Positions 334 to 29,522 of a DNA stretch of 64,000 nt are shown one piece after another; position 1 is the first letter of the stretch; each line of letters begins with the position of its first letter. The notes below the pieces were generated by a model that saw only the letters and a program-made list of their open reading frames with translations, had not been told where the DNA came from and ran no database searches. A program made the translations under genes and the position numbers. The stretch is from Candidatus Saccharimonadota bacterium (lineage in GTDB: Bacteria > Patescibacteriota > Saccharimonadia > Saccharimonadales > Saccharimonadaceae), in contig JAPUFB010000003.1 in NCBI GenBank assembly GCA_027492255.1, positions 13,889 to 77,888 on the forward strand, given 5' to 3'.

Positions 334-2199
334 TCATCTGATCTCAAGGAGTGTGATTTCCTTGCTGGAAACCACATGGATACCACCTGGTCCTGGGACC
401 AAGTAGCTGTGGCTGTCGACGAAGGGTTCTGTATCCGGGAACTCACGTTCCGTAACGATACTTCCTCCATCAATCGCCAAGCGGACAATACCGTCATCAG
501 TTGCCGTGAAAAGCGCTTCACCAAGTGCAAGATGTCCGCGAATTTCGCGACCAAGCCAGGAATCGCTTCCCTGCTCCGCCGTTTCACTCGTCAGAAGATG
601 GCCATTGGAATCGAAGATGTAGCAACGATTCATAAGCCGTGTCTTCTCTTGGGACGCAGTAAAGAACCACGCCTTGTTGTCGCCAAAGTAACACGTTGCG
701 TCAGTGAGCTGACCTTGCAACGCGGGTAGTTCGACTCTGTCGTTCAAACCAGATTTCCCGGGCTCGAACATGAATGCTCGAGTCAAGTTATGTGCCTGGT
801 AAAACCCAAAGCCAAATCGCTTACCTACCCAGAATAGAGTCTGGCCAGGCAAAACATCGCCGATATAGCGAGGTTGCAGTTGACCGCTTTCAAGCAGTTG
901 ACCGTTTGCCTCCCAAAACACATTGCTTGCATTGGCATCGAACACTGGCAGTCGATCGCGGTACATCCCGAGGAGCGTCTTACTGACAGAACCGTCAGCT
1001 TCAGCACCCAGTAGGGTTGTACCTTGTCCGATTAGTGTCGTGTCGCCCTGAATCCGAAACCGAAGTCCTGGACTCAGATCGGCAGACATCAGACGACGGC
1101 CGCCTTCACGGTAGAGCGCGCCAGATTCCTCATAGAGGAACCGTAATGTCCCGCCATGATTGACCGCTTGCAGGATTCGTCCGGTAGTACGGAAGATACG
1201 CCGGGCAGTTACCTGACCGCGAATCGTCACAACTTGACGGACAACCCCAGGAGTACTGCACTGCGGGCACACGTTGCGAGCGTGAAGCGTACCGCAACTA
1301 CTACACACAGTAAAGCGCAGTGTGTTCAATAGACGCTCAGGAAAATCTTCCCGCTTGTTGTGCTTGAACACCTGGTCAATATAGGCAAGCCACTCATCCG
1401 GCAACGCGCCGAAGTGAAGCGCTGGCTTCGGGTAGATCACATCCGTATCAAGAAACGTGACGCGCTGAAGCACGCGGGCGTCTTGTGTGAGACGTTTTCC
1501 AACCTTCGGCCTATGAACCCCGCCGTACGGACCCACATAAAGCAGCGACTGGAGCAGCATCACAAAGTATGCGTACCAATCACTCTGCTCGTTATGGGGA
1601 CGAATGAGCGTTAACGCATCAGGTCGAGCAATCAGCGGATCAATGAAACGGTTCGTGTAGGTATGACACTGAAAAGCGCCAAATTGCATACTATCCGCAT
1701 CAATCAACCGAACGTCCGTGTTATTTGTCATAACATTAAGATCATTGAAGTCACCGATCACTGCATGAGCTCCGTGAATACGATCCACAACACTCCGCAG
1801 CTTTCGAAATACTTCAACTACCATGTTGTTATCGACATTAGCCGTCTCGCGATACGACCGGTTACCAAGATTCATCAGCACATCCATACCATTTACAAAC
1901 GGCATCGTGTAGCCAACGATCCTTCCTCCGGGAGTATCATATGCGAGTGCGGCGGGTGCGATCACTTCAGGTGGCAACGATTTCGGAAATGCCAACAGCT
2001 TACGCTGCTGCTCATCAAGCCGGAATTGCGCCCCCTGCTGAGCAATTACATCACCCGCAAAATCCGGATGAGTCGGCTCCTTGTATCGCTTAAGTACGGT
2101 ATGAGCATCGATCTTGTAGATCTCAGCTTCACCGCCAACGCCTACTAGCATCCCCGCATTCAGGCGGAGAGATTTACCATCCACAATTGCCTTGGCCAT
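334..2199 (-). CDS. atypical Ser/Thr protein kinase (YegI-like) with zinc ribbon and beta-rich C-terminal half
   Basis: ORF 334..2214; GGAGG sits 4 nt before the ATG at 2199 (MAKAIVDG...). Motifs: VGGEAEIYK, HAVIGDFNDLNV (HxDxxxxN catalytic loop), LIDADS (DFG-equivalent), CSSCG...CPQC. Layout resembles E. coli YegI-type kinases. TGA stop. Confidence 0.6.
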   Translation of the reverse strand: MAKAIVDGKSLRLNAGMLVGVGGEAEIYKIDAHTVLKRYKEPTHPDFAGDVIAQQGAQFRLDEQQRKLLAFPKSLPPEVIAPAALAYDTPGGRIVGYTMPFVNGMDVLMNLGNRSYRETANVDNNMVVEVFRKLRSVVDRIHGAHAVIGDFNDLNVMTNNTDVRLIDADSMQFGAFQCHTYTNRFIDPLIARPDALTLIRPHNEQSDWYAYFVMLLQSLLYVGPYGGVHRPKVGKRLTQDARVLQRVTFLDTDVIYPKPALHFGALPDEWLAYIDQVFKHNKREDFPERLLNTLRFTVCSSCGTLHARNVCPQCSTPGVVRQVVTIRGQVTARRIFRTTGRILQAVNHGGTLRFLYEESGALYREGGRRLMSADLSPGLRFRIQGDTTLIGQGTTLLGAEADGSVSKTLLGMYRDRLPVFDANASNVFWEANGQLLESGQLQPRYIGDVLPGQTLFWVGKRFGFGFYQAHNLTRAFMFEPGKSGLNDRVELPALQGQLTDATCYFGDNKAWFFTASQEKTRLMNRCYIFDSNGHLLTSETAEQGSDSWLGREIRGHLALGEALFTATDDGIVRLAIDGGSIVTEREFPDTEPFVDSHSYLVPGPGGIHVVSSKEITLLEIR

Positions 2200-16998: not shown

Positions 16999-17766
16999 TT
17001 ATGGCCGCAATGTACCCGCGAAGACCTGCCAAGCAAGAAGTGTTTTTGCGACAAGACTGAGGATGATATAGGCTCGTTCACCGTAGAGGTAATCCTTCCA
17101 CGGGCCAACTTTTTTGTATTGAAGCACCATATTGATCGCGAAGCAGCTGAAGAATGTAAAGATTGAAACAAAGATCCAGTACACAAATGTTGGAGCTGGA
17201 CTTCCCTTTTCAGCTGAGAGCCAGAAGTAAAATGCGATCACAAGCCATGGAATTATGCCGGCAAGACATCCTATCCAATAACTAATCCAGTTTGTCTTTT
17301 TCGTCGTTTGATTGTGGATTTCCATAACGAGACCAAGAAGGTTCATGATTGCCGCAAGCGCAAATACCATTACGAGGCTCATAGAATCATAGATTCCAAC
17401 GAGCAGCGCGATAGCAACCATCATGATGCTCGCAGAGATAGAATACTCAACCCATCGCATCTTATTGATACCGATACGAAGATCTGAATTGTATTTTTTA
17501 TTGTAAAGGGTAGCTATATAGAGATGTGCAATCGCTGAGAGGAAGAAGAAGCTTGCGATAAGCAGTGGCAACGAAAGATTAAAGAGATTCGTAACTGTCG
17601 GCTCAAGACTCTTTGTTGCTGGGTTAAACGAAAGATAGTTAGCCGAGATCGGCAGGTCAAATGTACGACTAAGTACAAGAACTGCCACACCCTGTAGCCC
17701 ATGTAGCGCCGCCGCTATCAGGTTGTAGGTTTTTAGTGATTTAAAACTAATTGTTTTACTCATCAT
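16999..17766 (-). CDS. heliorhodopsin
   Basis: 255 aa, 7 TM. RWVEYSISASIMM (counterion Glu), IPW, GERAYIILSLVAKTLLAWQVFAGTLRP (retinal Schiff-base Lys). Near-collinear with the heliorhodopsin 48C12 motifs I remember. Confidence 0.85.
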   Translation of the reverse strand: MMSKTISFKSLKTYNLIAAALHGLQGVAVLVLSRTFDLPISANYLSFNPATKSLEPTVTNLFNLSLPLLIASFFFLSAIAHLYIATLYNKKYNSDLRIGINKMRWVEYSISASIMMVAIALLVGIYDSMSLVMVFALAAIMNLLGLVMEIHNQTTKKTNWISYWIGCLAGIIPWLVIAFYFWLSAEKGSPAPTFVYWIFVSIFTFFSCFAINMVLQYKKVGPWKDYLYGERAYIILSLVAKTLLAWQVFAGTLRP

Positions 17767-17842
17767 ATTCCTTTGTTATATTACTGTTCATCTGGTGTTT
17801 TTATAGTATCAGAAAAACATAATTATTTTCAAAATTATTACC

Positions 17843-17871
17843 TTGACTGTCATAGTACTGTGATATACAAT
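17843..17871 (+). promoter_or_regulatory. sigma70-type promoter TTGACT-17 nt-TACAAT, 6 nt before the padR-like ATG (leaderless-type)
   Basis: TTGACT at 17843-17848, TACAAT at 17866-17871, ATG at 17878. No Shine-Dalgarno is possible in the 6-nt gap. Confidence 0.6.
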
Positions 17872-17877
17872 GTAAAT

Positions 17878-18207
17878 ATGATCGATAACAAACTTACTTC
17901 CGACTTACTCCGTGGCCACACCGATACGATGATTTTGAAATTGCTCTCTAGTGGCGACAAATACGGCTACGAGATAACAAAACTTATCTACGAACTGTCA
18001 GGCCATGAGTACGAACTCAAAGAAGCGACCATGTACTCTAGCGTAAAGCGTCTCGAACATGACGGATACATCATGTCGTACTGGGGCGACGAGTCCCAAG
18101 GCGGCCGACGCCGTTACTACCGCATCACGGCAAGTGGCCGAGAGCTGTACGAAAGCAACCAACGCAACTGGACATATGCGAAACAACTATTAGAGAAACT
18201 TTTATAA
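17878..18207 (+). CDS. PadR family transcriptional regulator
   Basis: ORF 17773..18207; the ATG at 17878 gives MIDNKLTSDLLRGHTDTMILKLLSSGDKYGYEI...YYRIT, a typical PadR wHTH. Confidence 0.8.
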   Translation: MIDNKLTSDLLRGHTDTMILKLLSSGDKYGYEITKLIYELSGHEYELKEATMYSSVKRLEHDGYIMSYWGDESQGGRRRYYRITASGRELYESNQRNWTYAKQLLEKLL

Positions 18208-18216
18208 GGAGGGTTT

Positions 18217-19038
18217 ATGAACGACAAACTAAAGAAATTTTTGGACGACGCATTTAAACCATACGGCAACTTCCCTGCCCGCGCGGATGTGCAACAGGAA
18301 CTGCTCGCAAACTTGACCGAAAAGTATAACGACTTGAAGGCTGAAGGAAAAAGCGACAACGAAGCATACGCGCAAGTCGTCGAATCATTTGGTGACGTGT
18401 CAGAGATCATGGAAAATATCTCACACGAAAAGCCAAGTGAAAAGCCTACCAGCCCGTCACTCATGGACAGTGTAAAAAACATTTTCAAAGCTGGCGACAC
18501 GCGCTTTATGACGACCGACCTGCGCGGCTCCGACCTTGCAGACACCTCTCTCGTTAACGGCAACTTCAGCATGAGTGACCTACGCGGCACGAACTTTAAC
18601 CATGCTGACGCGACCAATGCTCGCTACAAAGCCGCCGACCTCACGAGTACTACTTTTGTTGGCGCAAACCTTTCCCGTGCTCGGTTTGATAGTAGCGATC
18701 TTTCAAAGTCAAACCTGTCCGAAGCAAATCTGACCGATGCGAAATTTGCCCGCTGTGCTTTCAAGGACTCATCACTCGCCGGCGCGACGCTCGACAACAC
18801 AACATTCAACATGTGCGACCTGAGCGATATATCATTTGACGGTCTGACGCTATGTGGCACTGTGTTCGACAAAACGTCACTCCGCGGCGCAACATTCAAA
18901 GACGCTGTGCTCGAAGACGTTTCGTTCCACCACTCCGACGCGAAAAAAGCCATCTTTGCCGGCGCAACCATGGACAAAATAACCTACGCGTTACTGAAAA
19001 GTTCAAAAGCAAACTTGGACAATGTGATAGTTAAGTAA
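18217..19038 (+). CDS. PadR-associated protein: DUF1700-like N-terminus plus pentapeptide-repeat C-terminal domain
   Basis: The N-terminus KKFLDDAFKPYG...ELLANLTEKYNDL resembles DUF1700. About 30 A(D/N)LxX-type pentapeptide repeats follow (DLRGSDLADTSLVNGNFSMSDLRGTNF...). AAGGAGGG is the SD. Confidence 0.7.
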   Translation: MNDKLKKFLDDAFKPYGNFPARADVQQELLANLTEKYNDLKAEGKSDNEAYAQVVESFGDVSEIMENISHEKPSEKPTSPSLMDSVKNIFKAGDTRFMTTDLRGSDLADTSLVNGNFSMSDLRGTNFNHADATNARYKAADLTSTTFVGANLSRARFDSSDLSKSNLSEANLTDAKFARCAFKDSSLAGATLDNTTFNMCDLSDISFDGLTLCGTVFDKTSLRGATFKDAVLEDVSFHHSDAKKAIFAGATMDKITYALLKSSKANLDNVIVK

Positions 19039-19253
19039 TTTTGCAACTTTAATACCCCCGAGACAATGTCCGGGGGTAGAGCTTCGACTTTACTCAACCT
19101 GGTTAGAGGGAGTGCGGGCTCGAAGGTGGCCGCGTGTAAAAAGCTGTATTATCTGCTGCGCGATGATGGCTGGTCCGAAGACTCCCATCTTTAGCCGTCG
19201 CGCCGGCAACACCTTGGTGGTGCTGTCCCAGATTTCGCTGGTTCGATTGTCGC

Positions 19254-19652
19254 CTAGAAGCCTACGCTTTGGGTCACGTAGACCAGGTCGGCCCCGGCAT
19301 GTGGGTCGCGGCGCAAGGCCGCGTCCCGGTTACGCCGGTTCTGACGTGCAACGAGCACGTCAGCGAGGTCAACTATCTTCTCCCCAATCTTCTCGGCCTC
19401 GGCCGAGAAGCCGTAATCCGAGGAATCACCGCTGAGGCCATATGCCCCCAGGCGGAGCGGCCCGTATCCGTCTAGCGTATGCTGGACGTCGCCCACCACG
19501 CCCAACGCCTGGTGGGCGTCGACGTAGTAGCTCCGCCACTCAACCCCGCCAGGGGTCCTTCGGATGTGGTGGAGGCCGACCTCACCTACCTCCGCTGCCA
19601 GAAATTTGGCCGCGTTGCGGATCATGCGCTTGGTGATGGTGATGGTGATCAT
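19254..19652 (-). CDS. hypothetical 132-aa protein encoded on a high-GC insert
   Basis: ORF 19254..19865, but the coding-like GC-rich part starts at ATG 19652 (MITITITKRMIRNAAKFLAAEVGEV...). AGGAG lies 7 nt upstream. No family recognised. Confidence 0.55.
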   Translation of the reverse strand: MITITITKRMIRNAAKFLAAEVGEVGLHHIRRTPGGVEWRSYYVDAHQALGVVGDVQHTLDGYGPLRLGAYGLSGDSSDYGFSAEAEKIGEKIVDLADVLVARQNRRNRDAALRRDPHAGADLVYVTQSVGF

Positions 19653-20053
19653 TTTTTTGCTCCTAGGTCTGTGCGCATTAGGCGCGAGTTTGATTTTTAC
19701 ATCTATTCGCTCAAGCGCGAGAACCAAGAGCTGCTCATGTGAGCTCTTGCCGTCCCTCGTTTGTAACAAATGAAGGATTCGCAAGAGTTCAATGCGCAAA
19801 AATGACTCTATTGCAGATAATAAAGCTGTTAATGTGCGGGGTATCCGGTCGATCATATTTGACATGAAGCTCGACGAACATCCCCGAAATAGTTCATAAA
19901 AGAAAGGGCTTTACCTTACCTATAAACCAAATCGGCGGTGTTAGTACTGGATAAATTGGCTACGTTCATGGATGAAAGTCATCCATAACTGTATAATACC
20001 ACAAGCGCAATGAAATGTCAATAGTCTCATCTCTCAAGGCTTATTTCTTTTGC

Positions 20054-20404
20054 TCAGCGAAGGATTTTCTCCATAGCTTTTCCATGAGCCAGTTCATCGA
20101 CGAGTTTGTCGAGGTAGCGGATGTTTTGCATCGTTGGTTCTTTGATATCTTCAACGCGAATACCGCAAACAACACCGGTTATCAAAGACCGGGCGGGGTT
20201 GAGCGAGGGAGCGTTAGCGAAAAACGTTTCAAGGTCGGTCTGTTTTTCAACCACCACCTCAAGTTCATGCTGGCTATAGCCCGTCAACCACCGGATGACT
20301 TCGTCAACCTCAGCCTTCGCACGCCCCTTTCGCTCCGCCTTTGCAATATAGAGCGGGTACACACTTGCAAAGCTCATGCCGTAGATGCGATGTTTCTGCT
20401 CCAT
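20054..20404 (-). CDS. DUF2200 family protein
   Basis: [37 protein letters not shown] is the DUF2200 hallmark. Confidence 0.7.
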
Positions 20405-20412
20405 GGTCGCGA

Positions 20413-20682
20413 CTACTTACTTAGGTCTTTTTTCAACTGCTCGAACTGCTCTTTATTTATCTCACCCTTGGCGTAGCGCTCGCGAACGATATCAAGTGCG
20501 TCAACGCTCTGACCATCTTCATGCGGGTGATGCATACCCATACCGTGCTGCCCTTTCGATATCCGTACCAATACTAAAATTACGAGGACAAAAACTAACG
20601 CCATAATAAGCATCATTACCCATCCTAGTCCTGAATCATAACCGTACCCATTCATTATTCGATAGCCATACATAAACGTCAC
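20413..20682 (-). CDS. SHOCT-domain membrane protein
   Basis: 89 aa with one TM segment. C-terminal [25 protein letters not shown] is the SHOCT motif. Confidence 0.7.
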
Positions 20683-20765
20683 CTCCTTCTTTATCTATAT
20701 AGTATACTCGCAAACATTAGACGAAACTCGGTAGTAGCACACGGAAAATCACAGACTGTCATCAC

Positions 20766-21362
20766 CTAGTCGTCCGAACCATGCCCGCTAGAAGAACCGG
20801 TACTGCTACCACTCGAGTTACTAGACCCACCTGTGTCATCGCTTCCACTTCCTGAAGAATTTCTAGTAGATGAATCACTATTCTTAGTGCTATCTTCACC
20901 ACTCGACCGGCCACTTGAATCATCAGCGTTCCCCGAAGTACTCGTATCATCTGAGCCACGTCTGTCGTCGTTTCCTGTTCGGTCGTCATTGGAATCGTGG
21001 TTTATTCTTTCTTGCTCCAGCTCACGCTCTTTTTCGAGCTCTTGTTTATATCCTGGTTGTACGAGTGCGCGAACATCCTCAATGCCACGTTTCAATGCAT
21101 AGAGGGGTGATCCGGGCTGAGCAAATACAGAAGCTACGACAAGTACAAGAAATAGCGCAAACGCTCCTGCAAACCCTACACGGCGTCTTGCCTTTACATG
21201 CATTGGCTTAAAACCAATCTGTTCAGCGATGCCATCCTTTGCTTCGCGGCTCAAATGCACATCACCCATGTTCAGTTCGCGTGCAACCCGCAAAAGCTCC
21301 GCACGTTCTTGTTTGCTAGCGCCAGCACGTTTCAGTTGCCACCAAAGACGAAGCTGTTTCAC
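20766..21362 (-). CDS. anti-sigma-factor-like membrane protein (DUF5667-like) with Ser/Gly/Asp-rich tail
   Basis: 4-nt overlap with the ECF sigma gene. One TM segment (FAGAFALFLVLVVASVF), GSPLYALKRGIEDV, and a low-complexity C-terminus. Confidence 0.55.
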   Translation of the reverse strand: MKQLRLWWQLKRAGASKQERAELLRVARELNMGDVHLSREAKDGIAEQIGFKPMHVKARRRVGFAGAFALFLVLVVASVFAQPGSPLYALKRGIEDVRALVQPGYKQELEKERELEQERINHDSNDDRTGNDDRRGSDDTSTSGNADDSSGRSSGEDSTKNSDSSTRNSSGSGSDDTGGSSNSSGSSTGSSSGHGSDD

Positions 21363-21838
21363 TCTAGTTCCCCTTTCAGTTTCTTAAGCGCTCTATGTTG
21401 CAGGACCCGCACGTTGACTTCTGTCATACCTAAACTATTAGCAGTTTTGCGCGCCGAATATTGCAACAAAAACCGTAACGTGACTACTGAGCGCATCATT
21501 TCGGGCAGCGAACTCACGGCTTTCACGACCCGTTCGCGAACAAGCGTCTTTTCAACCACTTCTTCAATATTTTCGTCCGACTCTTGTTCCTCGAGTGTAT
21601 CTTCCAGTACTGGCTGTTTTTTGCGCCAGTGATCATTTAACACATTCCGTGCAATGGTATAGAGCCACGGCCGTGGTTGAGCAAAATCAAAAGTATCAAT
21701 AGCTTTCCAGCCTTTCATAAACGTATCCGCTGTCAGATCTTCGGCGGTATGCGTGTCATGTACGTGAACAAGCAGATACCTGAAAATGTCGTCGGCGTAT
21801 GTGTCATACATCTTGGCAAACTTTCGCTCGTTAGTCAT
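21359..21838 (-). CDS. ECF-type RNA polymerase sigma-70 family factor
   Basis: 159 aa. Region 2 (YADDIFRYLLVHVHDTHTAEDLTADTFMKGW) and region 4 (VVTLRFLLQYSARKTANSLGMTEVNVRVLQHRALKKL). Confidence 0.85.
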   Translation of the reverse strand: MTNERKFAKMYDTYADDIFRYLLVHVHDTHTAEDLTADTFMKGWKAIDTFDFAQPRPWLYTIARNVLNDHWRKKQPVLEDTLEEQESDENIEEVVEKTLVRERVVKAVSSLPEMMRSVVTLRFLLQYSARKTANSLGMTEVNVRVLQHRALKKLKGELE

Positions 21839-21862
21839 TTATTACCTTTTAGTGTTCATAGT

Positions 21863-21894
21863 ATGTAACGTTTATATGGCTCATATCGTTACAT
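21863..21894. promoter_or_regulatory. palindromic ATGTAACG-N16-CGTTACAT: candidate bidirectional ECF-type promoter (GTAAC-17 nt-CGTT on both strands)
   Basis: Lies between the divergent sigma (start 21838) and PepSY (start 21923) genes, nested inside the 12-bp inverted repeat CCTTTTAGTGTT/AACACTAAAAGG (21845-21856/21903-21914). Confidence 0.4.
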
Positions 21895-21922
21895 ATAATG
21901 CTAACACTAAAAGGAGAACTAT

Positions 21923-22426
21923 ATGAAACGAATATTAGCAATCGCATTAATCGCCGGACTTGTGGCCGTACCAACACTAGTATCAGCACATCGCGGCACA
22001 GACGATACCAGTACAAGTACCCCAAGTGTTCAACGAGAAGACAGGGTTAATTCCTCAAACACGCAGTCAACTGTAACGATACCAAGTCAAACAACTCCTG
22101 TTCGGGTTGAGACAGAGTCGCCACAAAGCAGCACTACAATAACTGCCGAATCAGCTATTACACAGGCACTTACTGTCTTCCCAGGCAAAACAGTGGCCAA
22201 GGTTGAACTCGAGCACGAGAATACTGTACTTGTATATAGTGTCCGATTTTCAGATGGTAGTCGAGTGGATGTAAGTGCGACTGACGGTACTATTATGAGC
22301 ATACGAGATTTCACTAACCACGATAACCGAGATAACGAGCACCGCCAGAACAACCGAACCCAAGGAGACGATGATGCTAATCATACCGGCTCTGTATCGG
22401 GTCGTGATCACGCCGAAGACAACTAG
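21923..22426 (+). CDS. secreted PepSY-domain protein
   Basis: Signal peptide MKRILAIALIAGLVAVPTLVSA. PepSY core ITAESAITQALTVFPGKTVAKVELEHENTVLVYSVRFSDGSRVDVSATDGTI. AAAGGAG is the SD. Confidence 0.65.
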   Translation: MKRILAIALIAGLVAVPTLVSAHRGTDDTSTSTPSVQREDRVNSSNTQSTVTIPSQTTPVRVETESPQSSTTITAESAITQALTVFPGKTVAKVELEHENTVLVYSVRFSDGSRVDVSATDGTIMSIRDFTNHDNRDNEHRQNNRTQGDDDANHTGSVSGRDHAEDN

Positions 22427-22488
22427 ACAGCTCTGGTCTGTTACGAAAATACCCGAGATAACTCGGGTATTTTTAAGACCTCATTAAA

Positions 22489-23070
22489 CTATATTACCGC
22501 GTCCACGACATCACCTGCGAGCCTATTCTGTGCAACTACTCTCCTGACAGCAATACTCCCGACGACCAGTCCAAGAACAACCTGGGGGGCGAACGCATGT
22601 ATAAAAGCCGAGACTAGTGAAGCCCACGGGGTAGTATCGAACGGTGATCCTTGCATAAAACCAATCAACATCAGCGTCCTATGATCTGGTGAGAAGAGAC
22701 TATACGTCGACGGTATAAACAAGTCGATGCCATATACCATACCGTGCAATAAAAATGCTGACATAAAGCAGATAGCAGCGATTATCACCAGCGCTCGAGG
22801 CGTGTTTTTGAAACGTTTGCTATACAGCAGTGCCCCACAAATACAAACTGCAATAAAAAGTAACAAGTTCACGACACTCAGCAATATATAACCGGAGCGA
22901 GCCGAAAGCATCGTCATCCAACTGGAAAAATCCCATGGATTTTTTACCCCTGCCGCGGCGAGAGGCACAAATACTAGCGTAGCAACGACAAGTAATAGCG
23001 TCATAACGCCTGCAAGGCCTAAAAACACCCAAAATACTGAGCGTCGCTTGTGATTATTCATATATACCAC
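22489..23070 (-). CDS. membrane protein, unknown function
   Basis: 193-aa ORF with 5-6 hydrophobic segments; no family recognised. Confidence 0.5.
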   Translation of the reverse strand: MVYMNNHKRRSVFWVFLGLAGVMTLLLVVATLVFVPLAAAGVKNPWDFSSWMTMLSARSGYILLSVVNLLLFIAVCICGALLYSKRFKNTPRALVIIAAICFMSAFLLHGMVYGIDLFIPSTYSLFSPDHRTLMLIGFMQGSPFDTTPWASLVSAFIHAFAPQVVLGLVVGSIAVRRVVAQNRLAGDVVDAVI

Positions 23071-23245
23071 GCTGTAACATACTGCATAATACCCTGCTCG
23101 ATGCCTCTTTATACATAGTCTTTCGAGACGGCTTTAATCCAATATTTCATGTAATCTTTCTCTCTTTTATTATGTGGTTGTTCACTTTTCCTAGCTCTAT
23201 TATAACTGAGCCGAGATATTAGCATGTCTGGTATGCTAGTAACAT

Positions 23246-24115
23246 ATGGATCGTCTCAAACAACTTGCTCATAGTCTGAAACCTAGCCCAAAAATGCCCG
23301 TCCTATTTGTGGGGCATGGCAATCCGATGCATGCGATTCTTGACGATGAAATTACACGTAACTGGGCAAAAGTTGGAGGCAATTTGCCAGAGCCGCAAGC
23401 ATTCGTGGTTATTAGTGCACATTGGCAAACCAGAGGCACAAAGATTACCGACGCACCGACACAACCAATCATCTACGATATGTACGGCTTCCCTGATGAG
23501 TTATACCAAGTACAGTACCCCGCCAAGGGTGACCCCGAAATTGCCCGAGAACTCCGTGACGCATTTTTGCACTACGAAGCACAGCTCGATAACACCTGGG
23601 GATTAGACCACGGCACATGGTCAGTTTTGAAATACATGGCGCCGAAAGTAAAGGTACCGGTACTCCAAATCAGTATTGACATGACCCAGTCATTGCCGCA
23701 ACTCGTTGAAATGTTCCGCTTACTGAAGCCTCTGCGCGAAAAAGGTGTAATATTTATCGGCAGCGGCAACCTCGTACATAACCTCGGACGACTCAATTTT
23801 CACGACAATAGTATATTTGACTGGGCAATAGAATTTGACGAAAAAGCGAGCGAACAAATGAGCCTCCATAACCTCGACCTACTCACAAACCCACTCAAGA
23901 TGACGAATGCCGCCAGCCATACGTGCCCCGACTACAAACGAATACGTAACCAGTCATTAATAATTTTTTTCAATGCAATCACATTAGCATTGATGGATTC
24001 AAGAGTTGTAAATGTCATGATACCTCTTATATCAGAACTCCATTCGACCAATCCGCTCGTATCTGGCATCACTGGAGTGCCATTCTTCTCCTCTTTGCGA
24101 CGAGCACCCATATGA
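23246..24115 (+). CDS. LigB-family extradiol dioxygenase (YgiD/DODA-like), C-terminus replaced (probably truncated/decaying)
   Basis: PVLFVGHGNPMHA, VVISAHWQT, IYDMYGFPDELYQVQYPA, GSGNLVHNL. Family similarity stops near codon 228 (ASHTCPDY), exactly where the convergent gene 23932..24324 ends. The last ~60 codons are antisense read-through. Confidence 0.6.
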   Translation: MDRLKQLAHSLKPSPKMPVLFVGHGNPMHAILDDEITRNWAKVGGNLPEPQAFVVISAHWQTRGTKITDAPTQPIIYDMYGFPDELYQVQYPAKGDPEIARELRDAFLHYEAQLDNTWGLDHGTWSVLKYMAPKVKVPVLQISIDMTQSLPQLVEMFRLLKPLREKGVIFIGSGNLVHNLGRLNFHDNSIFDWAIEFDEKASEQMSLHNLDLLTNPLKMTNAASHTCPDYKRIRNQSLIIFFNAITLALMDSRVVNVMIPLISELHSTNPLVSGITGVPFFSSLRRAPI

Positions 24116-24324
24116 AGTATAAGCTTCACCGCCCCTTGTTTGTTCATGAGGTTAAATGTAATCCTGTCTTCACCATCTAGGACATAGCTAGGCGCGTTCC
24201 ATTTGATGCGTTCACTGAGTCGTGGCTCAGTCTTTAGTATCAGGTCCCGTAGTATATCAACTAGTTGTCGTTTATCTATCGGCAAGTCATCCAAAAATTC
24301 GTCTGTCGTTTTGTATTTCTGCAT
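23932..24324 (-). CDS. DUF1801 (YdhG-like) domain protein
   Basis: 130 aa; FLDDLP...ILRDLILKTEPRLSERIKWNAPSY is the DUF1801 pattern. TAAGAT hexamer lies 6 nt before the ATG. Confidence 0.6.
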   Translation of the reverse strand: MQKYKTTDEFLDDLPIDKRQLVDILRDLILKTEPRLSERIKWNAPSYVLDGEDRITFNLMNKQGAVKLILHMGARRKEEKNGTPVMPDTSGLVEWSSDIRGIMTFTTLESINANVIALKKIINDWLRIRL

Positions 24325-24424
24325 ATACCTATCTTAACAAACCTTGTGCACGACAAAAATCGACACCTATTACTATAGAGTCATTTTTAATCTATCGTGC
24401 GGCGTTGTTGATTGGTTTGATAAA

Positions 24425-24985
24425 TTATTTCTTCCAGTGTGACAATGCATTATTGATTATCGTTTTAATTTTTTCCTGAGCTTCCGTGATTGATATTTCT
24501 TTATCTTTATAAAAAACGAAATCGTCACTACTTTGTAGTAAAAACTGATGGAAATTATGACTTTTAGAGATTACGTCATCATTGGGGCTATATGTTGCAA
24601 TAATAATCATTGGATCGCCGTCGAAATCTCCGCCAATGTCTTGCCAGAAAGTAGTAATGCGGCTTGAATTATCCGGTTCACTCTCTTTCCATTCACTATT
24701 CTCAGTGTCCCATTCATCCCAAATGATGTGCTTTTCGTATCGAGTTATGATCTCTCTCTTCACATAATCAGACAATTTATAATCGCCACTAAGTCCAATG
24801 TAGATATACTTTTCTCTAGGTTGCCAGTCGTTGAATAGAATTTTCGGTAATTTGTTGATCCGACGTTTTGCAAAGGGTAGTCTGATTAAACTAAAAAATA
24901 ATGCAAAAGGCATCACTACTATCACGAGTAGAATAAATAATGGCATTAGAAGAGTATTCTTTGGTGCATTGATGTTTATGGCCAT
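24425..24985 (-). CDS. hypothetical membrane-anchored protein
   Basis: 186 aa, N-terminal TM (LLMPLFILLVIVVMPFALFF), AT-rich. TATAAT lies 7 nt before the ATG. Confidence 0.5.
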   Translation of the reverse strand: MAININAPKNTLLMPLFILLVIVVMPFALFFSLIRLPFAKRRINKLPKILFNDWQPREKYIYIGLSGDYKLSDYVKREIITRYEKHIIWDEWDTENSEWKESEPDNSSRITTFWQDIGGDFDGDPMIIIATYSPNDDVISKSHNFHQFLLQSSDDFVFYKDKEISITEAQEKIKTIINNALSHWKK

Positions 24986-25108
24986 TGTCGTAATTATATC
25001 AAAAAGAAGCCTCGCAGCCCCTTCAGCTAGAAACTATTATTCAATACCAAGAAAAATAGCCCATACGGGATGGACTACTCTTCTTAGTACGCTTTCGTAT
25101 ATAGGATC

Positions 25109-25300
25109 TTAGTAGGCTTTCGTTGCGCCGTCTTTTACTGCTTTTTCCGCATTGTCCTTAGACATCATTGCGCAAACTGTTGTTCCACATTTTTCATGCT
25201 TGCCTTTGGCCATGAAACCACCTGATTTAGTTTTGACAACTTCTGGAGCTGACAATTCAACGCCTTTTTCCTTACATTTAACGCAGTATCCTGTAACCAT
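25109..25300 (-). CDS. small zinc-ribbon protein (DUF5679-like)
   Basis: 63 aa, CVKC...x...CGTTVC. GAGGAG is the SD. Confidence 0.5.
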   Translation of the reverse strand: MVTGYCVKCKEKGVELSAPEVVKTKSGGFMAKGKHEKCGTTVCAMMSKDNAEKAVKDGATKAY

Positions 25301-25369
25301 GGCTATCTCCTCTTGAATTGATTATTACTTAACATAACGCTTGTCTAGTATATACCTTCTCATAGAAAA

Positions 25370-25807
25370 CTACGCTTGTCCATCTCGTATTGGATCAAAT
25401 TCTACTGTCCACTCAATGCCAAATTTGTCTCTAAACATTGCAAAATATGTCCCCCATGGACTCTCGCTCATAGGCATCTCAACAGCTCCTCCCACTGAAA
25501 GACCGGCAAATATTTTGTCAGCTTCTGCTTGGCTTTCCGCGGCGACCGCTATTTTAGACCTGTTTTCATCTTCGTTTACGCGTCCCATACTTTCAGGCAC
25601 ATCGTTGGCGATTAACACATTGCCGCCAATTGGCAAAACAATACGCATGATCTTATCGGCTTCGTCATCTGATACGGGAAATTCAGAGTTTTCTAAATCT
25701 TTAAAGCGCACAATGCTCGTAAACTCTCCGCCAAACACAGATTTGTAAAAGTTGAAGGCTTCTTCGGCATTTCCATTGAAATTAATTTATGGGTTGATTG
25801 TTGCCAT
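25370..25807 (-). pseudogene. VOC/PhnB-like (glyoxalase-fold) gene with in-frame TAA at codon 7
   Basis: From ATG 25807: MATINP*INFNGNAEEAFNFYKSVFGGEF... The family consensus has Tyr (I-x-P-Y-L/I-x-F-x-G-N-A) where TAA sits (25787-25789). The ORF track only finds the GTG-started remainder, 25370..25738. Confidence 0.65.
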
Positions 25808-25960
25808 GTAGATTGTCCTCCTGAGTACGAGTCTTAAACTTCTAGCCGCGCGGTCGACTTACGTCCACTGTCCTATGTCCATATTATAGCATTTTTTAGA
25901 GCATCAGTCATTACAACGCAGGTATCAAACGTTTCGGTCACAAAGGGCTATACTTAATAT

Positions 25961-26620
25961 ATGAGTGATGAGATTGAACTTGATAACGTGTATTATTTTT
26001 CTGTTAAAAAACGCCAACACCCTGAAGTTTTTAATCTAGTCCAGAATGTAATTGAAGATTCAAACCAACACAGTGGAGATAAATTGGAAATTCAGAGAAG
26101 GCTGCGACTTTTGACTACCAGCGAAGGGAATGAGCATTTAAGACAGTGTAGTAACTTTTTAGCTGAAGCTTTAGCCTTTGCGGAAATACATAATAAGGGA
26201 CAGACGCCTCATTGGGTGCCTGTAACTTCTCTGCCAACACCTGATATTAAGTATGAGGCGAGTGGTATGTTTCAACCTGTAGAAGTAAAGCACTTAAATA
26301 GTCCGAGAGAAGAACATGAGGCATTGGCGAGTGGAATGATGTACGGAGGTTCCGTGAACATGGACTATGATGCTGGACTTGTTAGGAAGATAAATGATTT
26401 TATCGTGTCTGCTAAATCAAAGTTCCTTCAATTCAATGCATCTGTTAACGAAACCGAAAGCGAGAAGGGTACTCTGTATCTGTACTTCAGCAAGTCCATC
26501 GATGCTGGTCTGACAGACGGCATAGAATGGCAGAAGACCATGAAAGAAAGAATAGCGGACATAGCAACGCCTTTATGCGGTGATGAAGTTAACTTGATAA
26601 TCGAAGATATAAACGAATAG
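25961..26620 (+). CDS. hypothetical protein with PD-(D/E)xK-like nuclease motif
   Basis: 219 aa; LPTPDIKYEASGMFQPVEVKHL reads as PD...x12...E-V-K. TATACT lies 6 nt before the ATG. Converges on the HEPN-like gene with a 14-nt gap. Confidence 0.45.
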   Translation: MSDEIELDNVYYFSVKKRQHPEVFNLVQNVIEDSNQHSGDKLEIQRRLRLLTTSEGNEHLRQCSNFLAEALAFAEIHNKGQTPHWVPVTSLPTPDIKYEASGMFQPVEVKHLNSPREEHEALASGMMYGGSVNMDYDAGLVRKINDFIVSAKSKFLQFNASVNETESEKGTLYLYFSKSIDAGLTDGIEWQKTMKERIADIATPLCGDEVNLIIEDINE

Positions 26621-26634
26621 TTCGTACAACCGAG

Positions 26635-27090
26635 TTAGTCTCTCCAACTCCACTCATTATGAATTGCTGCATGGGCTCTCTTTAGCAGTCGTACGTACAA
26701 ATCATCGACCATCGAGTTGGCATCATAATGACCAAATGTTCCTACTTTCCCGTATCTTGTTTCTATAACATTTCGGTCCTTGAATTCAGGATACTTATCG
26801 AAAAACTCATTTATCAAATCTCTTGTTACATCGTCTTTGACTATCTCAAGGGCTTTATCTTTGGTTCTACCTAACTCATGGCTGAATTTCTTCATTTGAG
26901 CTGTGGTTGAGTATTGTTTATCTATACAAATTAGTGCCTTCAATAAAAACTCTATAGAAAAACAGAATGCTACATACTTGGCTGTCGTAAATCTAGGTCG
27001 AGGGAGACTCATTCCTTCCGTAGCTAAGTCGTACCACTCCATGCTACGACTTAATAGCGATGCGGGCGTATGGTCATAATCTTTAGACAT
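26635..27090 (-). CDS. HEPN-like domain protein (third gene of orphan operon)
   Basis: 151 aa. Helical pattern AFCFSIEFLLKALICI ... KFSHELGRT ... VIETRYGK matches the classic HEPN layout (ExxLKA, sHxL, RY). 8-nt overlap with the upstream gene. Confidence 0.5.
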   Translation of the reverse strand: MSKDYDHTPASLLSRSMEWYDLATEGMSLPRPRFTTAKYVAFCFSIEFLLKALICIDKQYSTTAQMKKFSHELGRTKDKALEIVKDDVTRDLINEFFDKYPEFKDRNVIETRYGKVGTFGHYDANSMVDDLYVRLLKRAHAAIHNEWSWRD

Positions 27091-28189
27091 AATACTCCTG
27101 GCTGCTGAATAGCTCTTTCACGTATTTATTGAAATTTTCATGGTTAATACCCAAAGTATTACTGCCTGTCTCGAATATATCAAATACAGTTTTGACACTA
27201 TGGTTTTCAAACTCTAGACCATAAACGGGTACAGCAAACATATTTTTATTATCCATTACAAATCCATGCAGTTCGCCGATGAACCTCAGCGCAGATATTT
27301 CTATGCCATGTCTATTTGCATCCCTCGGCACCATTACCCACGGTATCGACTCTTTATCCAGCGCAAAGGATTGCTTATCTGCTTTTACTAATGATTCCTT
27401 CAGTTTATCAATTGCTGGACCCATGTCCCAACTGGCCTGAAAATGCACGTTTACATTGTTGGGATTGAATGAAAACATGAAATCTGATGAGTAGTCATTA
27501 TTCCGAATCATGGCACTCAAAGTCATATCTGAATATCTCGCTAAGTCTAAATCTTCTTCAAACGCTATAGCCATTTTTTCTAATGATTTATGTATTAGCT
27601 TCTTATCGGGAGTAAACACCGAAATTAATATACTTTGGTTCCTAACCAACTTTATAACACGCAGCAGTTCACTTGCAGATGCGTTCACTATATCTTCGAA
27701 ATATAGCCTGCTATTAGGAAAAGTTTTAGCGTCTGACGCAAACGGAATCTCTAATAAGTCAACATCGGCTAGCCCTTTTTGTTTTGAAGAATTAAATCCT
27801 ACTTTGATGTTTTGGTATTTATAAAAACCTCCTACAATGATTTCATTAAGAGACGAAAGCATTGGGCCAGAGTTAGGACTTAATAATCCACGTTGTAACT
27901 CAGATAAGTAATCAGGGTTTGATTTGATTTCATCTTTCAACTTACCTAGTACTGAAGCAGTGAATTTGAAATACCCATAGTCGTCTGCTGGCACACTCTG
28001 CTGCTGATGACTATAGAGATGACCATTGAATTCGTAGCTTGTATTGATAATAAACCTCATCGAAGGATTAGTAACACCAATCAGCTTGTTGGTGTATGTG
28101 CGCCTCATACATTCCTTAATAGCGTTTCTAATAGCCTCATGTCCAAAAACATCAATATATTTCTGAAGACTAATTGCTCTCTTATGCAC
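27083..28189 (-). CDS. hypothetical 368-aa protein (second gene of orphan operon)
   Basis: GTG start sharing one base with the upstream TAG. No family recognised. SLNEIIVGG...GLADVDLLEIPFASDAK could be an E...D...DxK nuclease core (weak). Confidence 0.5.
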   Translation of the reverse strand: MHKRAISLQKYIDVFGHEAIRNAIKECMRRTYTNKLIGVTNPSMRFIINTSYEFNGHLYSHQQQSVPADDYGYFKFTASVLGKLKDEIKSNPDYLSELQRGLLSPNSGPMLSSLNEIIVGGFYKYQNIKVGFNSSKQKGLADVDLLEIPFASDAKTFPNSRLYFEDIVNASASELLRVIKLVRNQSILISVFTPDKKLIHKSLEKMAIAFEEDLDLARYSDMTLSAMIRNNDYSSDFMFSFNPNNVNVHFQASWDMGPAIDKLKESLVKADKQSFALDKESIPWVMVPRDANRHGIEISALRFIGELHGFVMDNKNMFAVPVYGLEFENHSVKTVFDIFETGSNTLGINHENFNKYVKELFSSQEYYV

Positions 28190-29001
28190 TATTTCTTTAC
28201 CTGCATTAATATGTCTGACTTGAATCGTCCATTACCGTAGCTTCTATTCCACATTTCTTTGTTAGAAAAATAGAAGTGGGTTAATAGAACTTCGTTTTCC
28301 TTGGTACCTTGAGCAGTAATAATCTTTTGCATATTTTCAAGCAATGATGAAATCAACATAGATTTAATGATTACTCTTGCATGGTTAAAGGCTAGAGTAT
28401 TCTCGTATATTACGAAGTGTTTGCTATCCTTTTTCTCACGTGTGTAATAAGTTAAAGATGAATCGAATTTTGCCAACGGGAATGACTGACCATCTGAAGT
28501 TCTTACAGTATATACACTTTCATTGGTGTTGCCCCTAACTCTAAAGCCATGTTTATAAGCATTCAAAAACTGAGCATCAAGATTGTAGTCGCTCATCACT
28601 TCGCTAAGTATAGATAAATGCTCATCTAGCTTATTTTGATAATTCTTGATGGATTCTTTTTCGTTAATGCCAAAGGCGTAATGTTCCAGAATCCATTTCT
28701 TGAACTGAAGAGAGTTTTCCGTTTTCTTAACAAAATCCAAAATCTCATCACTGCGAGAGAACATCCCTTCAAGGATAGTATTCTCTCTCCCAGCGACAAT
28801 CATCATATTTATCATTAAGATTTCGCTTAATTGCATGTATGTAGCGTAAAGCTCAATCAGATGCCTTCTTTTTGTTTTGTCGGTTTTGAGCTTTTGTAAT
28901 TTATCGGCAATATGCTCGATTCTTTTAAGCCATCCTGAAAAATCTTGCTGGCTGTAGTATTCATAAAAAAAATCTTGAAGTGCATTGTCTTGGTCGACCA
29001 T
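28189..29001 (-). CDS. hypothetical 270-aa protein (first gene of orphan operon)
   Basis: ORF 28189..29055 (GTG), but GGAGGA (complement of 29012-29017) lies 10 nt before the ATG at 29001 (MVDQDNALQDFF...). No family recognised. Confidence 0.5.
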   Translation of the reverse strand: MVDQDNALQDFFYEYYSQQDFSGWLKRIEHIADKLQKLKTDKTKRRHLIELYATYMQLSEILMINMMIVAGRENTILEGMFSRSDEILDFVKKTENSLQFKKWILEHYAFGINEKESIKNYQNKLDEHLSILSEVMSDYNLDAQFLNAYKHGFRVRGNTNESVYTVRTSDGQSFPLAKFDSSLTYYTREKKDSKHFVIYENTLAFNHARVIIKSMLISSLLENMQKIITAQGTKENEVLLTHFYFSNKEMWNRSYGNGRFKSDILMQVKK

Positions 29002-29175
29002 GACAATATTATCCTCCAATCTAATCTCTTTAGCTACCAAGTATATGTAGCTCACGTCCGAAAAGCCTCACGTGCGGTCTGAGAGGTATCTCGGAGTGTC
29101 TAAGCGCGCGTATCTAAGGACGCTTTTTGCTGTAAAACGGTAAGAAAAATAGCCATATACGATGGAATACTTTCT

Positions 29176-29198
29176 TGGTGCGGGTACAGGGACTCTAA
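29176..29198 (-). repeat. displaced copy of the 3' terminal 23 nt of tRNA-Gly (att-like direct repeat)
   Basis: tggtgcgggtacagggactctaa is identical to 33356-33378. Confidence 0.8.
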
Positions 29199-29225
29199 AC
29201 CCCGAACGCCGAAGCGTTCGGGCAA

Positions 29226-29290
29226 TCACACCTGGACTATTGATTTCTTTGACGAGGTCCAGGGTTAGAGAATTACAATACATACCAAAC
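29226..29290. repeat. 65-nt repeat (copy A) containing a 20-nt sense copy of tRNA-Gly positions ~40-59
   Basis: tcacacctggactattgatttctttGACGAGGTCCAGGGTTAGAGaattacaatacataccaaa, compared with 33261-33324. Flanked by hairpins at 29203-29224 and 29296-29316. Confidence 0.75.
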
Positions 29291-29522
29291 GTAAAACCCC
29301 AACGACGAGGTTGGGGCATTACATTTGGTGCTCAACGAGCAGAAAGTTGTACACCCATTTAGCCTTGATAGCTTTGCTGTACAGAGCCTGGAAGTACAAC
29401 GGTGGCGTGATATTCTTGCTGTTCCGTATGCCAACTATAAGAGTATGTTAGTGCCTCGCTAGACTTACACACCACGCCATAGTTATGCTTGATAATAAAA
29501 ATATAAAACCTACAATAGCCTT

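Follow-up and report, generated by a model that had tools for sequence, protein, structure and literature searches.

Does a G+C-rich islet in a small genome mark a gene taken from a foreign donor, or can its composition be a property that its own transcript maintains? The question is raised by a 64,000-nucleotide (nt) stretch of the genome of a Candidatus Saccharimonadota bacterium (assembly GCA_027492255.1, contig JAPUFB010000003.1, positions 13,889 to 77,888 of the forward strand; hereafter, the window), in which an earlier note, made from the letters alone, had pointed to a high-GC patch with a gene for a 132-amino-acid (aa) orphan protein, here P0001, and had proposed a recent acquisition from a high-GC donor. 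The patch is real: in 200-nt windows, G+C content is 0.59 to 0.675 within positions 19100 to 19600, versus 0.39 to 0.48 in both flanks. Taken as a whole, the locus is best explained, at a probability that we put near 0.6, as an autonomous, hyper-folded mRNA cassette that is restricted to Saccharibacteria, gated post-transcriptionally, and loaded with orphan cargo.

A promoter-to-terminator unit with a conserved scaffold

A promoter, a leader of ~330 nt, a GC-rich open reading frame (ORF), a trailer core of ~100 nt, and a terminal hairpin form what is probably one autonomous transcription unit of ~970 nt that runs from 20021 to 19053 on the minus strand (features lie on this strand unless noted otherwise). 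The unit opens with a sigma-70-type promoter (19993 to 20021; TTGACA, a spacer of 17 nt, and TG-n-TATTAT, with an extended −10 TG and 11 of 12 consensus matches), which is conserved at the homologous loci L002, L025, G091, and L030 and whose −10 box puts the probable transcription start near 19985. The structured 5′ leader (19653 to 19985) aligns with the leaders of these four loci and of L028; since its indels relative to L002 are not multiples of three, we consider it non-coding. What the earlier note had described as about 400 nt of non-coding AT-rich DNA upstream of the gene is thus a conserved promoter and a structured leader. The Shine-Dalgarno (SD) sequence AGGAG (19660 to 19664) stands 7 nt before the ATG, as had been read directly in the sequence, and is invariant in all seven leaders.

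The coding sequence (CDS) of P0001 (19254 to 19652, stop codon included), which translates into the 132 aa quoted in the earlier note, is supported by its codon signature, by its relatives, and by the ratio of nonsynonymous to synonymous substitution rates (dN/dS). G+C at its three codon positions (GC1, GC2, and GC3) is 0.68, 0.44, and 0.79, versus 0.48, 0.37, and 0.48 in the same frame upstream (19653 to 19865), which confirms that the GC break falls at the ATG. Long ORFs of this genome have a GC3 of 0.425 ± 0.064, making the gene strongly atypical (z = 5.7). We consider the start of the public annotation (P0002, 200 aa; 19254 to 19865), an upstream ATG within the non-coding leader, to be too early, because the proteins of the relatives begin at an ITIT motif and upstream indels relative to the closest relative are not multiples of three; the conserved start is the ATG at 19652.

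For P0001 and its relatives, no family was found in Pfam, NCBIfam, PADLOC, or PHROGs. A HMMER search of 1.84 billion representative proteins returned one true relative (P0003, 55% identity), and a profile search of 5.8 billion clusters added P0007, P0008, and P0009 (P0001 aligns with P0007 over the N-terminal 63 residues at E = 1e-08). All of these relatives are encoded on Saccharibacteria-like contigs of ~45 to 54% G+C, and each gene stands out there as a local maximum of G+C. With a dN/dS of 0.17 to 0.73 across the family, the gene evolves as a protein-coding gene. P0001 is predicted to be a soluble alpha/beta protein that is not hydrophobic, and its AlphaFold2 model, built from five sequences only, has a predicted local distance difference test score (pLDDT) of 83.5 and a predicted template modeling score of 0.78; neither a sequence profile search of PDB nor Foldseek searches of PDB and BFVD gave a match below E = 0.3.

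Downstream of the stop codon lies the trailer core (19150 to 19250), followed by distal hairpins (19079 to 19141; CUUCGAG...GUCGAAG) and by a terminator-like, G+C-rich hairpin that ends the unit (19053 to 19078). The distal stem carries compensatory changes, CUUCGA/UCGAAG in the window becoming UUCUGA/ACAGAA in G091; the stem of the terminal hairpin is kept in L002 and G091 with a different loop, and no clear U-run follows it. Homology with L002, a 1.8-kb contig, extends from the promoter to just beyond the terminal hairpin, and the genes on both sides of the homologous block are unrelated between the two loci. Within the block, identity is 83.7% in the leader, 62.3% in the CDS, and 90.2% in the trailer, reaching 98% over the 101-nt trailer core (19250 to 19150). 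The trailer core is more conserved than the protein and, as identity in the leader and trailer exceeds that of a CDS whose synonymous sites are saturated, the non-coding parts are constrained more strongly than the protein.

From the trailer core we built a covariance model, R1, which comprises a CCAG/CUGG hairpin, a variable hairpin, a GCCG/CGGC helix, and then a GCGCGA/UCGCGC helix around GAUGG-[GUC-UUCG-GAC]-CCAUC. R1 is found directly after the stop codon of every member of the P0001 family (E values of 1e-21 to 1e-29) and downstream of all seven distinct cargo genes (E ≤ 1e-21). One and the same leader/trailer scaffold flanks four other members of the P0001 family and also an unrelated 185-aa protein in G091 (a genome of the same family as the source; CAYLGT010000009, labelled “Candidatus Saccharibacteria”) and L030/L031, the genes of which have GC3 values of 0.95 and 0.89, respectively. 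The 132-aa and 185-aa families share no significant similarity (BLASTP E = 0.68; hhalign E = 0.22); the AlphaFold2 model of the 185-aa protein from G091 is unusable (pLDDT 35.6). The loci occupy differing neighborhoods, following RNase J, NADAR, or rplM-rpsI.

The scaffold was found on only a few Saccharibacteria-like contigs. R1 is single-copy in the source genome, where none of the other high-GC patches contains it, and it matches 2 of 151 genomes of the family; presence and absence in sister genomes, which the earlier note had proposed to compare, thus mark the cassette as accessory, its DNA not having been found in eight genomes of the same genus. Beyond the family, the order yielded one weaker match (G295), with none in the 22 other genomes of that genome's own family, and an exact-pattern scan of 185,579 species representatives returned two contigs. 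The trailer-core pattern had no match in JGI metagenome contigs or viral contigs, and no Rfam family matched either positions 17000 to 22000 (cutoff E ≤ 1) or the six homologous loci searched (cutoff E ≤ 0.1). An R1 match in G092 is a false positive inside proS.

The match in G295 may represent a distant copy of the scaffold. It lies at ~1440 to 1900 on the minus strand of L038 (G295:C1), after rplM-rpsI and ~130 nt upstream of a tRNA gene, and shows a promoter (TTGACG-17-TATAAT), a leader, a 26-aa hydrophobic ORF (MGSPYALIIGLVFLTFILGFLVGKLN), an R1-like trailer (31 bits, with the first hairpin compensated), and a strong terminator; as a single marginal match, it possibly, if weakly, fits a type I-toxin-like picture.

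Other readings of the trailer were discarded. The 32-aa ORF at 19090 to 19188, which the earlier note had considered the possible remnant of a toxin-antitoxin-like cassette, is not a gene: it meets a stop after 11 codons in L020 and its frame differs in L002, while its nucleotides are almost invariant; without a conserved frame, the remnant falls away with it. A 42-aa plus-strand ORF is likewise truncated by stops in L020 within conserved DNA. Strings reminiscent of tmRNA (GGGGG...UUCGAC, GGUUCGAUU-like) do not represent a tmRNA fragment, since both ARAGORN and RF00023 locate the genuine ssrA on contig C6 and this locus has no Rfam match.

Predicted folding of the transcript

All RNA structures described here are predictions and draw on 5 to 7 distinct sequences. 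In the minimum-free-energy (MFE) structure of the full mRNA, a leader segment (AGCUUUAUUAUCUGC, 19813 to 19827) pairs at 14 of 15 positions with a trailer segment (GCAGAUAAUACAGCU, 19142 to 19156), with probabilities of 0.93 to 1.0. The leader is accordingly modeled as clamped to the trailer with the ORF looped out, and covariation supports this pairing: in L002, L025, L028, and SKS1, the homologous leader segment pairs with the trailer of its own locus by way of different sequences (in L025, CAACUUGAUAUCUGC with GUAGAUAUCAAGUUG). A helix of 12 to 15 pairs is present in the MFE structures of five of six independently folded transcripts, and, between distant loci, a leader forms a stronger duplex with its cognate trailer than with a non-cognate one (for L025, −22.7 versus −13.8 kcal/mol or weaker). 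These comparisons use short homologous segments and full-length folds, as RNAduplex over whole leaders and ungapped pair counts proved too noisy for a long-range helix. Each wobble pair that we typed by eye in these helices is G·U on the sense strand, an argument for pairing of RNA over repeats in DNA; for this reason, and with no invertase nearby, the repeats were rejected as DNA inversion sites. A second promoter-like site (TTAACA-16-TAGAGT, 19805 to 19832) overlaps the 5′ strand of this helix; its CATTAA(C/T)A part is kept in all leaders, and a transcript starting from it would lack part of the clamp.

Between the clamp and the start codon, three leader segments are predicted to act as a switch with two mutually exclusive states, again with support from covariation. 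S1 (GAACUCUUGC, 19781 to 19790) can pair with S2 (GGCAAGAGCUC, 19741 to 19751), which itself resembles a ribosome-binding site, and S2 can instead pair with S3 (GCAGCUCUUGG, 19724 to 19734), the anti-SD strand that otherwise pairs with the SD region. For S1:S2 and its enclosed hairpin, 94% of alignment cells are paired and four pairs are changed on both sides, a result equaled by 4 of 500 shuffles; for the S2:S3 hairpin, which excludes S1:S2, the corresponding values are 91% and two pairs. In G091 and L030, a change at column 54, in S2, is accompanied by changes in both of its pairing partners. In the MFE structure of the whole transcript (~941 nt), S1:S2 is formed and S3 lies on the SD region, such that 21 of 24 nt around the SD and AUG are paired; the S3:SD pairing (8 to 9 pairs) is found in the folds of the window, L002, L025, and L028, that is, in all four loci that have the switch. 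In the trailer core, 99% of cells in the proposed R1 helices are paired, with minimal covariation: the GCGCGA/UCGCGC and GCCG/CGGC helices, which would form a pseudoknot or alternative structures, show one double change each, both in the G091 lineage.

The transcript is also far more folded than its composition requires. The whole mRNA folds at −385.5 kcal/mol, versus −320.7 ± 6.9 kcal/mol for dinucleotide shuffles (z = −9.4). When synonymous codons are permuted such that protein and codon usage are kept, the CDS of the window has a z-score of −5.6, and negative values recur in the related genes (L002, −4.4; SKS1, −3.2; L025, −2.0; L028, −2.6) and in the unrelated cargo of G091 (−3.8) and L030 (−7.1), as opposed to −0.5, +0.3, and +1.2 for three neighboring ordinary genes. 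Five other high-GC CDSs of the genome are all negative as well (z of −1.4 to −7.3). As the coding region is paired beyond what protein and codon usage need, its high G+C is predicted to be, at least in part, a selected and maintained property of the RNA.

From these structures, a mode of action can be proposed. In the ground state, the leader-trailer clamp would be closed, S1:S2 formed, and S3 placed on the SD, hiding the ribosome-binding site, and the full-length mRNA would be stable yet closed to translation; pairing of S2 with S3 would free the SD. Translation would then need a trigger for refolding, for which there are two candidates: loss of the trailer strand through 3′ trimming, and the binding of some factor to the invariant trailer core. 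The 132-aa protein would be a conditionally expressed product, one that may harm the cell.

Several observations weigh against the cassette interpretation. SKS1 lacks the switch altogether, and in G091 a candidate 11-bp leader-trailer helix is absent from the MFE structure. The covariation statistics are weak, given so few distinct sequences and several double changes that derive from a single lineage (G091/L030), and the R1 fold is barely tested because the trailer core hardly varies. The z-scores show that there is extra structure, not that structure caused the GC-richness, and the ORFs may have had a foreign origin in the more distant past. As a soluble protein of 132 aa, P0001 does not resemble classical type I toxins, and a consensus promoter scan of 18900 to 20150 revealed no antisense promoter or antitoxin RNA.

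A more far-reaching version is that Saccharibacteria possess an undescribed, modular RNA “chassis”, made up of promoter, leader with switch, leader-trailer clamp, invariant trailer core, and terminator, that accepts unrelated orphan ORFs, with extreme G+C selected for a closed, nuclease-resistant, and translationally silent mRNA of ~1 kb that opens only on a specific cue. This we advance tentatively, at somewhat under even odds.

Competing explanations

Plain horizontal acquisition holds that the ORF came recently from a high-GC donor, such as an actinobacterial host, and has not yet ameliorated, and that its flanks are ordinary native intergenic DNA. Saccharibacteria live on Actinomycetota, and both the deviant GC3 of the gene and the failure to find the cassette in eight genomes of the genus agree with such a transfer, as does the break in synteny in G159, a genome of the same genus. 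There (G159:C50; L036/L037), the PadR and pentapeptide-repeat genes that adjoin the cassette in the window are followed by a pair of ABC-transporter genes, with the cassette, DUF2200, and SHOCT missing, which identifies the region downstream of the pentapeptide gene as a variable slot; synteny ends at that gene, and the sister genomes offer no clean empty site. Nor is the patch unique. Across this genome (854,584 nt in 6 contigs, 45.6% G+C), 400-nt windows have a mean G+C of 0.456 (standard deviation, 0.040; 99th percentile, 0.59), and some 20 stretches reach at least 58% G+C (for example, C4:264439-264978, C5:64516-64956, C3:275518-275961, C3:86390-87088, and C4:157688-158398). Many of those checked hold ORFs with a GC3 of 0.74 to 0.91, six of eight scanned ORFs being without a significant Pfam match, and positions 1 to 343 of the window are themselves the end of another such ORF (C3:13164-14231).

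Against this explanation, neither the 1.84 billion representative proteins nor, by profile, the 5.8 billion clusters yielded a homologue off Saccharibacteria-like contigs, and the homology search that the earlier note had called for thus brought no high-GC donor to light; tblastn against phages and plasmids found no match either. The host-to-symbiont route from Actinomycetota that had been suggested therefore lacks a known donor, all relatives residing on Saccharibacteria-like contigs. The flanks, moreover, are conserved across loci beyond the protein. Nor does “recent” fit, since the copies in the window and L002 differ by a synonymous divergence (dS) of ~1.05 and yet retain GC3 values of 0.79 and 0.70, and the excess base pairing of the CDS relative to synonymous shuffles indicates a maintained property at the RNA level. 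Homologues with the same GC bias, whose vertical conservation was to speak against transfer, are present in the lineage but patchily rather than vertically. What stands of the original proposal is a gene that is accessory, patchy, and atypical in its codons; as a complete account, a recent transfer from a high-GC donor is unlikely, if the least so among the alternatives.

The closest functional parallels are type I toxin-antitoxin loci. Known type I toxin mRNAs are a few hundred nt long, and hok/sok of plasmid R1 has a closed 5′-3′ mRNA fold, a hidden SD, and alternative hairpins, as has aapA1/IsoA1. For aapA1 of Helicobacter pylori, translation of the full-length transcript is reported to be impossible before processing of the 3′ end (PMC5416894). 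Like the cassette, aapA1/IsoA1 (in the consulted portions of PMC5416894 and PMC6733600) and hok/sok are self-contained units with their own promoters, in which, as in our predicted fold, a long-distance 5′-3′ interaction and alternative hairpins close the SD; activation by 3′ processing and refolding is a feature of these known systems and conjectural for the cassette. Type I toxin mRNAs are also accessory and patchy in distribution, and the 26-aa hydrophobic peptide of the possible relative in G295 echoes their products. These likenesses suggest, by analogy, that the cassette works as type I toxin mRNAs such as aapA1 and hok do. The differences are nonetheless considerable: type I toxins are small hydrophobic or membrane-active peptides, usually of fewer than 60 aa, whereas the cargo here is a protein of 132 or 185 aa; type I systems have a cis- or trans-encoded antisense RNA, whereas the promoter scan of 18900 to 20150 detected no promoter for one; the transcript, at ~940 nt, is longer than type I toxin mRNAs; its CDS, unlike those of aapA1 and hok, is GC-rich and hyper-structured; and its invariant trailer core of ~100 nt has no counterpart in either.

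A genuine type I locus would have the protein as toxin, arresting growth or killing the cell on expression, and a small antisense RNA, lying over the leader or trailer, that neutralizes the mRNA. In its favor are the hallmarks reported for aapA1/IsoA1 in the excerpts cited (PMC5416894), namely, a closed 5′-3′ fold, a sequestered SD, and alternative hairpins, which are predicted here and recur with compensatory changes in four to five homologous transcripts; so, too, are the single-copy, accessory, and patchy nature of the locus and the classical toxin type of the G295 peptide. Set against these are cargo proteins of 130 to 185 aa that are not hydrophobic (P0001 being soluble and alpha/beta, with a 26-aa hydrophobic ORF in the weak relative G295 only), the lack of any PADLOC or Pfam toxin match, and a consensus scan that yielded no plus-strand promoter-like site in 18900 to 20150. 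Because the cargo is a soluble 132-aa protein, no antisense promoter is visible, and toxicity is only conjectured, we do not file the locus among type I systems, an assignment that we judge slightly less probable than recent acquisition. Interaction between untranslated regions (UTRs) is in any case not confined to toxins: in the hbs mRNA of Bacillus subtilis, the part of the report used here ties a 5′/3′-UTR interaction and initiating ribosomes to the control of ribonuclease action (PMC5737220). That precedent resembles the cassette as a bacterial mRNA with interacting UTRs; however, hbs is a conserved housekeeping gene and is not described in that part as having a modular scaffold for unrelated cargo, a GC-rich CDS, or a switch that hides the SD (PMC5737220).

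The cassette might instead be a relocating element, a mobile or recombining promoter-to-terminator module that swaps its cargo and whose RNA structures serve mobility or stability rather than the gating of translation. The homology with L002 from the −35 box to just past the terminator between unrelated genes, the differing neighborhood of each locus (RNase J, NADAR, or rplM-rpsI), the unrelated cargo within one scaffold, and the deviant composition are all consistent with this. Phage morons are autonomous promoter-gene-terminator units of deviant composition, and the cassette is such a unit, sharing with them its promoter-to-terminator autonomy, varied neighbors, and orphan cargo; the conserved, structured leader and trailer of the cassette and its 5′-3′ pairing are not defining features of morons. 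The location is not a prophage, the neighbors being PadR, a pentapeptide-repeat protein, DUF2200, and SHOCT, and the cassette has no match to PHROGs, phages, or viral contigs. Integron cassettes also resemble it, with interchangeable, often orphan ORFs and a structured, conserved 3′ element. They, however, come as arrays with an integrase, whereas the trailer element here is single-copy, with no array; the cassette has its own promoter and leader, its wobble pairs point to RNA rather than to the single-stranded DNA pairing of attC, and inspection by eye showed no attC-like R/L boxes.

We saw neither an integrase or transposase nor a target-site duplication or the terminal repeats of any known element, integrases not having been the object of a dedicated search. 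Together with a unit that is single-copy per genome, the blank results for viral contigs, phages, and plasmids, and G·U wobbles that place the leader-trailer pairing in RNA and not in DNA, this leaves a relocating element a little more doubtful again than a type I locus. Finally, a chimeric assembly, in which high-GC reads of another organism were joined into a low-GC contig, is close to refuted: chimeras can arise in metagenomic assemblies and the step in G+C is abrupt, but a separate Logan contig of SRR22048721 (10,889 nt) is 100% identical over 18477 to 29365, across both junctions, six other independent assemblies share the scaffold and the GC step with a GC-rich ORF inside, and the SD, start codon, and trailer abut the ORF precisely.

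Surroundings of the cassette and significance

The convergent neighbor of the cassette (18217 to 19038, plus strand) encodes a pentapeptide-repeat protein of 273 aa, the N-terminus of which has a “permease prefix”/HAAS-like domain, and lies behind a PadR regulator; the terminal hairpin at 19053 to 19078 is common to this gene and the cassette. At L025 (contig ERZ27236853 k141_540126), a second GC-rich (0.54 to 0.62) and uncalled ORF (including MTVTILSQTAVQAGHRP; 1552 to 1851, plus strand) comes right after the cassette and is not accompanied by R1.

High-GC islets in the small, AT-leaning genomes of the candidate phyla radiation (CPR) are routinely read as host-derived genes. If the cassette interpretation holds, horizontal-transfer calls that are based on composition need caution in these genomes, and two undescribed RNA elements, a leader that bears a switch and an almost invariant trailer core, become open to experiment. 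Under the same condition, accessory genes of Saccharibacteria, a group poor in classical regulators, would be gated by means of elaborate mRNA architecture. The chassis version, if true, would add a novel class of gene cassettes under post-transcriptional gating and would offer an explanation other than horizontal gene transfer for the many GC-rich islets that look foreign in CPR genomes.

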